Origin: Dictyostelium discoideum | Taxonomy: Eukaryota | Assembly: GCA_000004695.1 (NCBI GenBank) | Contig: CM000154.2 | Span: 1,856,001-1,920,000 of the forward strand | Length of the DNA stretch: 64,000 nucleotides | Reading direction: 5' to 3' | Shown: piece by piece, positions 38,164-38,612 of the stretch | How positions within the stretch are numbered: position 1 is the first letter of the stretch | Layout: every line of letters begins with the position of its first letter | The notes under the pieces: model-generated | Databases searched by the model: none | The model's input: the letters and a program-made list of their open reading frames with translations, nothing else | Told to the model about the DNA's origin: nothing | Made by a program: the position numbers and the translations under genes

Positions 38164-38612
38164 ATGTTGGCATCTATAAGAAAGCTTAAAAAAAGTGAAG
38201 ATTTCACTCTTTACTTTGACGAATTAGTATATCCAGATGAGTTTCCAAAGATTCAGCCTGGCTACTGCACAGAGGAATGTAAAGAAAAAATGAAAGAGAT
38301 TTATAGAATAACATTGGAACGTAATATTGAGGCTGTAAACAAATATTACAATGACAGCAGAATTTTCGAATATAACTTGGGGAAAAAACCCTAGAGGATG
38401 TGATATTTGGATGTATCGAGAATTTTTCAGTACTCCACCCCCCTGTCTCACCTCAAGATGAATATGCTAGAATGGCAATAAAAGCAATCAAAGTTGGTAT
38501 TCAAGATGGAAAGCCTGTTAGATTATGTGAGTTGCCATCTGGTGGTCAATGTGATTTGATGCAACAAACCTACCTCATTCTGAAGAAGATGAATAGGAAA
38601 AAAATAGAATAA
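38164..38612 (+). pseudogene. ORF of about 146 aa, split by a -1 frameshift at an A6 run (about 38388). Codon usage and GC content are atypical for this genome.
   Basis: ORFs 38164-38394 and 38400-38612 fuse if one A is added in 'gggaaaaaaccc'. GC is about 36-38% and codons such as CTG, GCT, CCC, AGG appear, against a genome that strongly prefers A/T at third positions. Confidence 0.4.

Follow-up and report, generated by a model that had tools for sequence, protein, structure and literature searches.

The Dictyostelium discoideum locus DDB_G0288733 is probably a frameshifted, 5'-truncated pseudogene of a dictyostelid-specific gene family

The locus annotated as DDB_G0288733, a 124-aa hypothetical protein in public protein sets, is best explained as a duplicated (unprocessed) pseudogene of a dictyostelid-specific gene family. 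We place the probability that positions 38161–38741 of the DNA analyzed are such a non-functional copy, and neither a foreign nor a recoded gene, at about 0.85. The DNA, referred to throughout as the window, is a stretch of 64,000 nt from Dictyostelium discoideum, and its proteins match D. discoideum AX4 entries. It is very AT-rich, with 11–37% GC per kb and coding islands of ~30–37% GC. The copy carries at least four disabling lesions, consisting of three indels and the loss of the 5' end. Because of its three frameshifts and 5' truncation, it is filed here as a family pseudogene and not as a functional member. Invariant family residues are still encoded outside the deleted N-terminus.

Two plus-strand ORFs, of 76 aa (38164–38394) and 70 aa (38400–38612), are present at the locus as the original prediction described, and the peptide strings that it quoted were found in the sequence. 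The GC content of the 449 nt they span (38164–38612) was measured at 34.7%, lower than the 36–38% given for it. An A6 run is located at 38383–38388, and one added A does fuse the two ORFs, although into a product of 149 aa and not the ~146 aa claimed. The idea that a missing A is the lesion does not hold, for reasons given below. The 76-aa ORF follows the ancestral reading frame of the family as far as ...EYNLGK.

The family to which the locus belongs was identified with phmmer. The fused product matched small Dictyostelium proteins at E values of 1e-45 to 1e-70, the top match being the locus's own model, DDB_G0288733. Intact relatives are 151–152 aa long and include the AX4 proteins DDB_G0268734 (Q55EW1), DDB_G0277457 (Q8MN51), and DDB_G0279121 (Q54X90). 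Profile searches added DDB_G0293162 and DDB_G0293026, along with the more distant DDB_G0268832, DDB_G0293518, and DDB_G0284797, and the family comprises about eight genes in AX4. Matches came only from D. discoideum, D. cf. discoideum, D. citrinum, D. dimigraforme, D. firmibasis, D. purpureum, and Polysphondylium violaceum. Members are dictyostelid-only, intronless genes whose ~150-aa products share an acidic tail and conserved Cys/His positions. At the DNA level, the block homologous to the intact paralogues extends on the plus strand from 38173 to 38741, that is, from ancestral codon 13 to the stop codon and through ~145 nt of 3' flank. By blastn, this block is 85.5–86.5% identical over 578–595 nt to the loci L003 (DDB_G0268734), L001, and L004. 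Individually, DDB_G0268734 shares ~86% DNA identity with the window copy, reaching into the 3' flank, and DDB_G0279121 shares ~84%.

The lesions were defined by DNA alignment of the window copy to the three paralogous loci L003, L001, and L004, and all three indels are on the plus strand. At 38379–38382, the window copy has G4 where the three paralogues have G3 (+1 nt), and the extra G generates a TAG at 38392–38394. The A6 run, which directly follows this G4, has the same length in the window copy and in all three aligned paralogues. The frameshift is therefore not a missing A, since the paralogues also have A6 and the window has a surplus G in the adjacent run. At 38438–38443, C6 replaces the C5 of the paralogues (+1 nt). 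At 38556–38558, T3 replaces T4 (−1 nt), and the conserved acidic C-terminus ...CDFDATNLPxSEEDE is thereby exchanged for ...CDLMQQTYLILKKMNRKKIE. A further observation concerns the C run, which is C6 in the window; a base of the C5 run appears to have been lost in the fragment at another locus (L005, ~5464–5646), as judged from the P0010 protein sequence alone. If this base loss holds, the coding C run would be a recurrent slippage site.

As a result of the three indels (G3 to G4, C5 to C6, and T4 to T3), the ancestral reading is distributed over all three frames. The sequence of the intact proteins is ...EYNLGKNPRGCDIWMYREFFSTPPPVSPQDEYARM...QCDFDATNLPDSEEDE, and the window encodes the corresponding pieces in frame 0, +1, +2, and +1 again. 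Three-frame translation and protein alignment assign 38383–38437 (plus strand) to the ancestral reading KNPRGCDIWMYREFFSTP, followed by the C run, in a third frame that is used by neither of the two ORFs. Repair of the three bases yields a 143-aa sequence with 87% identity to DDB_G0268734 in an alignment along its whole length, in which 140 of the 143 residues are aligned. The repaired translation ends in ...SEEDE* like the paralogues, at the ancestral TAG stop codon of the family frame (38594–38596, plus strand). Protein identity of the repaired copy is 86–87% to DDB_G0268734 and DDB_G0277457 and ~77% to DDB_G0279121. With the single-A repair the frame stays open, but the family frame is missed by 19 codons that follow the A run and by the final 18 codons, and we infer that the 149-aa fusion is partly an out-of-frame artefact. 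The family signatures C44-x3-C48, KMKEIY, Y70/D73/F77, and G120-I-x2-G-K-x-V-R-x-C130 are all encoded in the window copy, spread over three frames. However, unlike DDB_G0268734, DDB_G0277457, and DDB_G0279121, the window copy lacks codons 1–12 and has three frameshifts, so that neither the invariant Cys7-x-His9 nor a single uninterrupted ORF of ~150 codons is found in it.

Homology to the paralogues begins at 38173, corresponding to ancestral nt 37 (blastn). Ancestral nt 1–36 are absent or scrambled; they code for Met1 to Phe12, a stretch with the invariant Cys7 and His9. Immediately before ancestral nt 37, at 38161–38172 on the plus strand, is ATCATGTTGGCA, the exact reverse complement of ancestral coding nt 19–30. 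Local alignment with four paralogue 5' ends gave an exact match at 12 of 12 positions, with a shuffle p of ~0.01 for a match chosen post hoc. This junction looks like a repair scar. The paralogues' start codon is not aligned to the ATG at 38164, which is probably a fortuitous start.

Several explanations would make the locus a working gene. One is that an intact gene was misread through homopolymer sequencing or assembly errors, and three of the three indels do fall in homopolymer runs. However, the runs are short (3–6 nt), the 5' truncation is a non-homopolymer event, and a second assembly, GCA_054883475.1, carries the identical 449 nt even though its genome differs from the window, with 7 mismatches and 6 gaps in 10.4 kb (99.77% identity). 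The presence of the same lesions in an independent assembly argues that they are not sequencing errors, and an intact gene behind them is highly improbable. An active gene producing the 149-aa fusion by programmed −1 ribosomal frameshifting at the A run had also been proposed. A-rich runs are sometimes slippery for ribosomes, and a −1 slip on GGG AAA AAA C would unite both ORFs. In contrast to this expectation, the zero-frame context is G AAA AAA, with no canonical slippery heptamer X XXY YYZ, and the 92 nt downstream fold no better than could be expected of many shuffles (MFE −20.6 kcal/mol, z −1.48; 18 of 200 shuffles fold equally well). The 19 codons after such a slip would be read in a non-conserved frame, with the family's NPRGCDIWMYREFFSTPPP encoded in the other one, and two more shifts, three in all, would still be required. 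In the paralogues the same A6 run is inside one continuous ORF, and the two-frame architecture is not conserved, the homologues being single ORFs. Programmed frameshifting at this site is vanishingly improbable. The published model implies a third way in which the gene could be live, namely that coding sequence has turned into an intron whose removal bypasses the first frameshift. The annotated "intron" of DDB_G0288733 (38321–38394, plus strand) is 74 nt long, reads GTAATA...CCCTAG, and has a GC content of 32%. Deleting exactly this interval yields the 124-aa DDB_G0288733 protein (P0001) as an open frame. The interval is bounded by GT...AG, its length of 2 mod 3 offsets the +G and the +C exactly so that the family frame is regained from VSPQDEY on, and the model is present in two annotations. 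However, the interval encodes RNIEAVNKYYNDSRIFEYNLGK in the window copy and the counterpart of this peptide in each paralogue; the invariant Tyr70, Asp73, and Phe77 are among these residues. The paralogue genes are uninterrupted, intronless ORFs of 456–459 nt, and the GC content of the "intron" compares with ~13–14% in flanking non-coding DNA. Its product would lack invariant Cys7, His9, Tyr70, Asp73, and Phe77 and would contain 17 out-of-frame residues and a non-family tail. In addition, no paper in the literature mentions any of 10 gene identifiers, DDB_G0288733 among them, and in an exact-sequence look-up the 76-aa ORF was on record in no assembly, including transcript-like contigs of the kind found for a neighboring gene (L012–L017, see below). 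Because the interval is coding in every paralogue and the family is intronless, the "intron" is most likely an annotation device bridging the first frameshift. We infer that the 124-aa spliced model, too, is partly an out-of-frame artefact, and a live spliced gene is very unlikely.

The remaining alternative is that a foreign gene was recently acquired by horizontal transfer or as transposon cargo and then inactivated. The region does stand out as 35% GC amid 13–14% GC, its codon index is close to the lowest of the window genes, the L003 paralogue is near an integrase gene, and the chromosome 3 copy is beside a reverse-transcriptase element. However, a GC content of 35% is normal for coding sequence here: the ancestral frame has an overall GC of 0.352, and other window ORFs reach 0.34–0.37 (up to 0.365). 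Codon usage said to be foreign to this genome turned out to be within its range. GC3 in the ancestral frame is 0.252, compared with 0.076–0.26 in the 21 other window ORFs of at least 150 aa and with 0.22–0.23 in the intact paralogues measured (DDB_G0268734 and an L001 copy). On a CAI-like index built from the window's own genes, the pseudogene scores 0.518, two intact paralogues 0.51–0.52, and the window genes 0.52–0.85. Among host gene segments of the same size, GC3 is at least as high in 17%, and the CAI-like index is at least as low in 7%. The family therefore lies at the weak-bias edge of the host codon distribution, yet inside it. The GC3 of 0.33 in the 149-codon fused frame is explained by part of the sequence being off frame, which inflates the count of G/C-ending codons. 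The codons that had been cited as examples illustrate this: CTG GCT ACT GCA CAG AGG is out of frame, the true codons being CAG CCT GGC TAC TGC ACA GAG, and CTG AAG AAG ATG AAT AGG belongs to a non-ancestral frame. No homologue outside Dictyostelia was found among 5.8 and 1.8 billion proteins, the sole non-dictyostelid matches being two spurious repeat proteins of unknown source, and there was no viral or PDB fold match. Homology to the paralogues is limited to the gene and its 3' flank. The region is bounded by neither terminal inverted repeats nor target-site duplications, the repeats found there being A/T runs. The flanking inverted repeat that had been noted, ATTGGGG/CCCCAAT, is real (~37768–37809), but it is not a terminal inverted repeat; it sits in the duplicated 3' flank of a neighboring gene and folds no better than shuffles (z −1.17). 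A foreign origin is extremely improbable. What stands of the original prediction is that the gene has been inactivated, while acquisition, programmed frameshifting, and sequencing error all fall away as explanations.

The pseudogene reading also raises the matter of how the copy lost its 5' end, and the neighboring 213-aa gene DDB_G0288745 (36916–37557, plus strand), upstream of the pseudogene, is relevant here. On chromosome 3, 458 bp separate its paralogue DDB_G0279119 from the family member DDB_G0279121, the two being arranged head-to-head. Window positions 36732–38036 match 5782–7122 of this chromosome 3 locus (L008) on the same strand, with 90.6% identity overall and mostly 93–100% in 60-nt bins; a few indel-rich bins of this segment are lower than 93%. 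The pseudogene (38186–38619) matches L008 5494–5072 on the opposite strand with 84% identity. The only window sequence homologous by blastn to the upstream region of family genes is 36378–36552 on the minus strand (E 1e-33 against L004 6002–5829 and 4e-28 against L001 5002–4833). This segment was the top scorer among 277 AT-rich window segments and is collinear with the chromosome 3 intergenic region. It sits 1.6 kb from the pseudogene, beyond the neighboring gene and facing away (inverted). In contrast to the intact paralogues, then, the window copy does not adjoin the family's usual upstream region.

This arrangement suggests that the copy was probably silenced by a local rearrangement that split it from the shared head-to-head upstream region. 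In its simplest form, an inversion of ~1.7 kb comprising the upstream region, the 213-aa gene, and its flank would have left the family gene without its promoter and start codon. We hold this detail only tentatively, at somewhat less than even odds. Since divergence from chromosome 3 is unequal (93–100% for the neighbor segment versus 84% for the pseudogene), an inversion would need later gene conversion or a two-step history. A remnant of coding nt 1–36 was sought at the left breakpoint (36330–36386), where the signal was not significant (p 0.4). Window 38020–38160 was considered as the pseudogene's own upstream region, and it scored at p < 0.002 against mononucleotide shuffles, but 16–30% of real AT-rich intergenic segments score equally, so that the signal is a composition artefact. 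The same composition effect also discounts an inversion through staggered breaks that would have left the upstream region duplicated in inverted orientation. Syntenic orthologues were sought by exact look-up of the neighboring acyl-CoA oxidase, which returned only GCA_054883475.1 and 2-kb transcript-like contigs; the loci of two further family copies (P0002 and P0005) are not syntenic with the window.

Other features of this neighborhood were observed as well. A 1.6-kb segment at window 36429–38020 (L008 5616–7110), containing intergenic sequence, DDB_G0288745, and ~460 nt of 3' flank, is mostly 93–100% identical to chromosome 3 in 60-nt bins and 100% identical at 37894–37953. Sequence identity at this level points to a recent segmental duplication or gene conversion that would be much younger than the pseudogene. 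Upstream of the 213-aa gene, the intergenic sequence at 36530–36748 contains a 109-nt unit in tandem (2.0 copies, 97% match) that is a single unit in the chromosome 3 copy. The last codons and stop codon (36378–36397) of a 1227-aa ORF (32714–36397) are inside the sequence homologous to the family upstream region, and the C-terminal tail of this ORF may have been reshaped by the same rearrangement. The acyl-CoA oxidase ORF occurs alone in six Logan contigs of ~2.05 kb (L012–L017), with flanks of 47–79 nt and ~28 nt. These contigs resemble assembled transcripts and so suggest that a single-exon mRNA is made from this gene. Between the pseudogene and this gene, at 38770–38905, are small islands that are GC-richer than their surroundings, such as GGTCGGACAAATTG and GGTGCGCATTGACCCTTC, which matched nothing in Rfam and showed homology to none of the loci compared. 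An Rfam search at E up to 1 returned no match in 36300–39600, and no tRNA genes were found in the window. The sole Rfam match in the window is a full-length U1 spliceosomal snRNA gene at 14152–14314 on the minus strand (RF00003, 76.7 bits).

The state of decay of the window copy is what is seen in duplicated pseudogenes of birth-and-death multigene families. Like these, it is a paralogue-derived copy with several independent disabling mutations and with sibling copies disabled at other sites, and nothing about it is unusual by comparison. Other family copies have been broken independently: L004 has a +2 nt insertion, L007 is frameshifted, and L005 is a fragment only. Such copies, disabled at different sites in different strains, point to fast turnover of the family by a birth-and-death process. 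The parent genes have no introns, so the window copy could, formally, also have arisen by retroposition. The slippage indels in homopolymers would have arisen during replication once selection on the copy was lost, and the two ORFs would be what is left of the gene. From codon 14 onward, the copy shows 11 synonymous and 15 non-synonymous differences from three near-identical paralogues. In this 11:15 split, non-synonymous changes are fewer than at the roughly 1:3 expected for pure neutral drift, so that inactivation may be fairly recent or the branch may have been partly under selection, and it suggests a mixed history of constraint and neutrality. The window copy may also be transcribed or give a truncated product, such as that of the 76-aa ORF.

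The intact family is without known relatives in sequence or fold. Pfam returned no match for the fused product, nor for 16 family members at E up to 10. The AlphaFold model, based on a 13-sequence alignment, has a pLDDT of 82 and a pTM of 0.71 and is mostly helical with a C-terminal beta-hairpin. Three structure searches gave no meaningful match, with a best E of 5.9 for Foldseek against the PDB and nothing for Foldseek against viral structures. At its C-terminus, the family has the motif KVGIxDGKPVRLCxLPxGxxCDF, for which a profile search against the PDB gave a weak alignment to both NEIL3 GRF repeats (E 0.012, ~30 residues). GRF is a type of zinc finger also present in APE2 and TOP3A, and the AlphaFold model has its beta-hairpin at this motif. 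However, there is no Pfam match to zf-GRF (PF06839), the first zinc-ligand pair of the family is out of register, and one subfamily lacks the last Cys. The apparent resemblance to a GRF zinc finger is thus treated as a lead only. As a guess from the C-x-H...C-x3-C pattern and the modeled hairpin, the intact family might be a small metal-binding protein.

A link to deoxynucleoside kinases (dNK, PF01712) was considered and rejected. The P0010 model joins a dNK-like P-loop half to a family fragment, and a dNK-like gene is located 2 kb from a family member in L001, but the profile-sequence probability is 0.1% and no dNK was among the structure matches. The P0010 fusion is a chimeric model or a fragment and not evidence of dNK homology. 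At its locus (L005 5001–5670), a dNK-like P-loop N-terminus (GSGKTT) is followed by a frameshifted family fragment, probably representing a chimeric pseudogene or a mis-model. A separate observation was made at L001 (GCA_054859205.1, JBTAPH010000039.1), which is ~20 kb from a contig end and is a dense cluster of duplicated lineage-specific genes. It contains two divergent family members, a pair of paralogous secreted proteins (EKYAS...GYPWVC), and an 84-aa basic ORF in two copies, and it looks like a fast-evolving terminal gene cluster.

These results have consequences for the annotation and for the interpretation of similar loci. DDB_G0288733 should carry a pseudogene flag, because its modeled intron is coding sequence in all paralogues. 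This case is also a caution for readings made from sequence only, since a single indel may join two ORFs without bringing back the true frame. It is quite unlikely that turnover of the family is driven by conflict (for example, self/non-self or anti-parasite) or that the copy is rescued by splicing out 38321–38394; if either were true, the locus would be more than a dead gene. As a by-product, the analysis defines an orphan family of Dictyostelia that has a confident predicted structure and no known relatives, and this family may be of interest to researchers studying lineage-specific genes.
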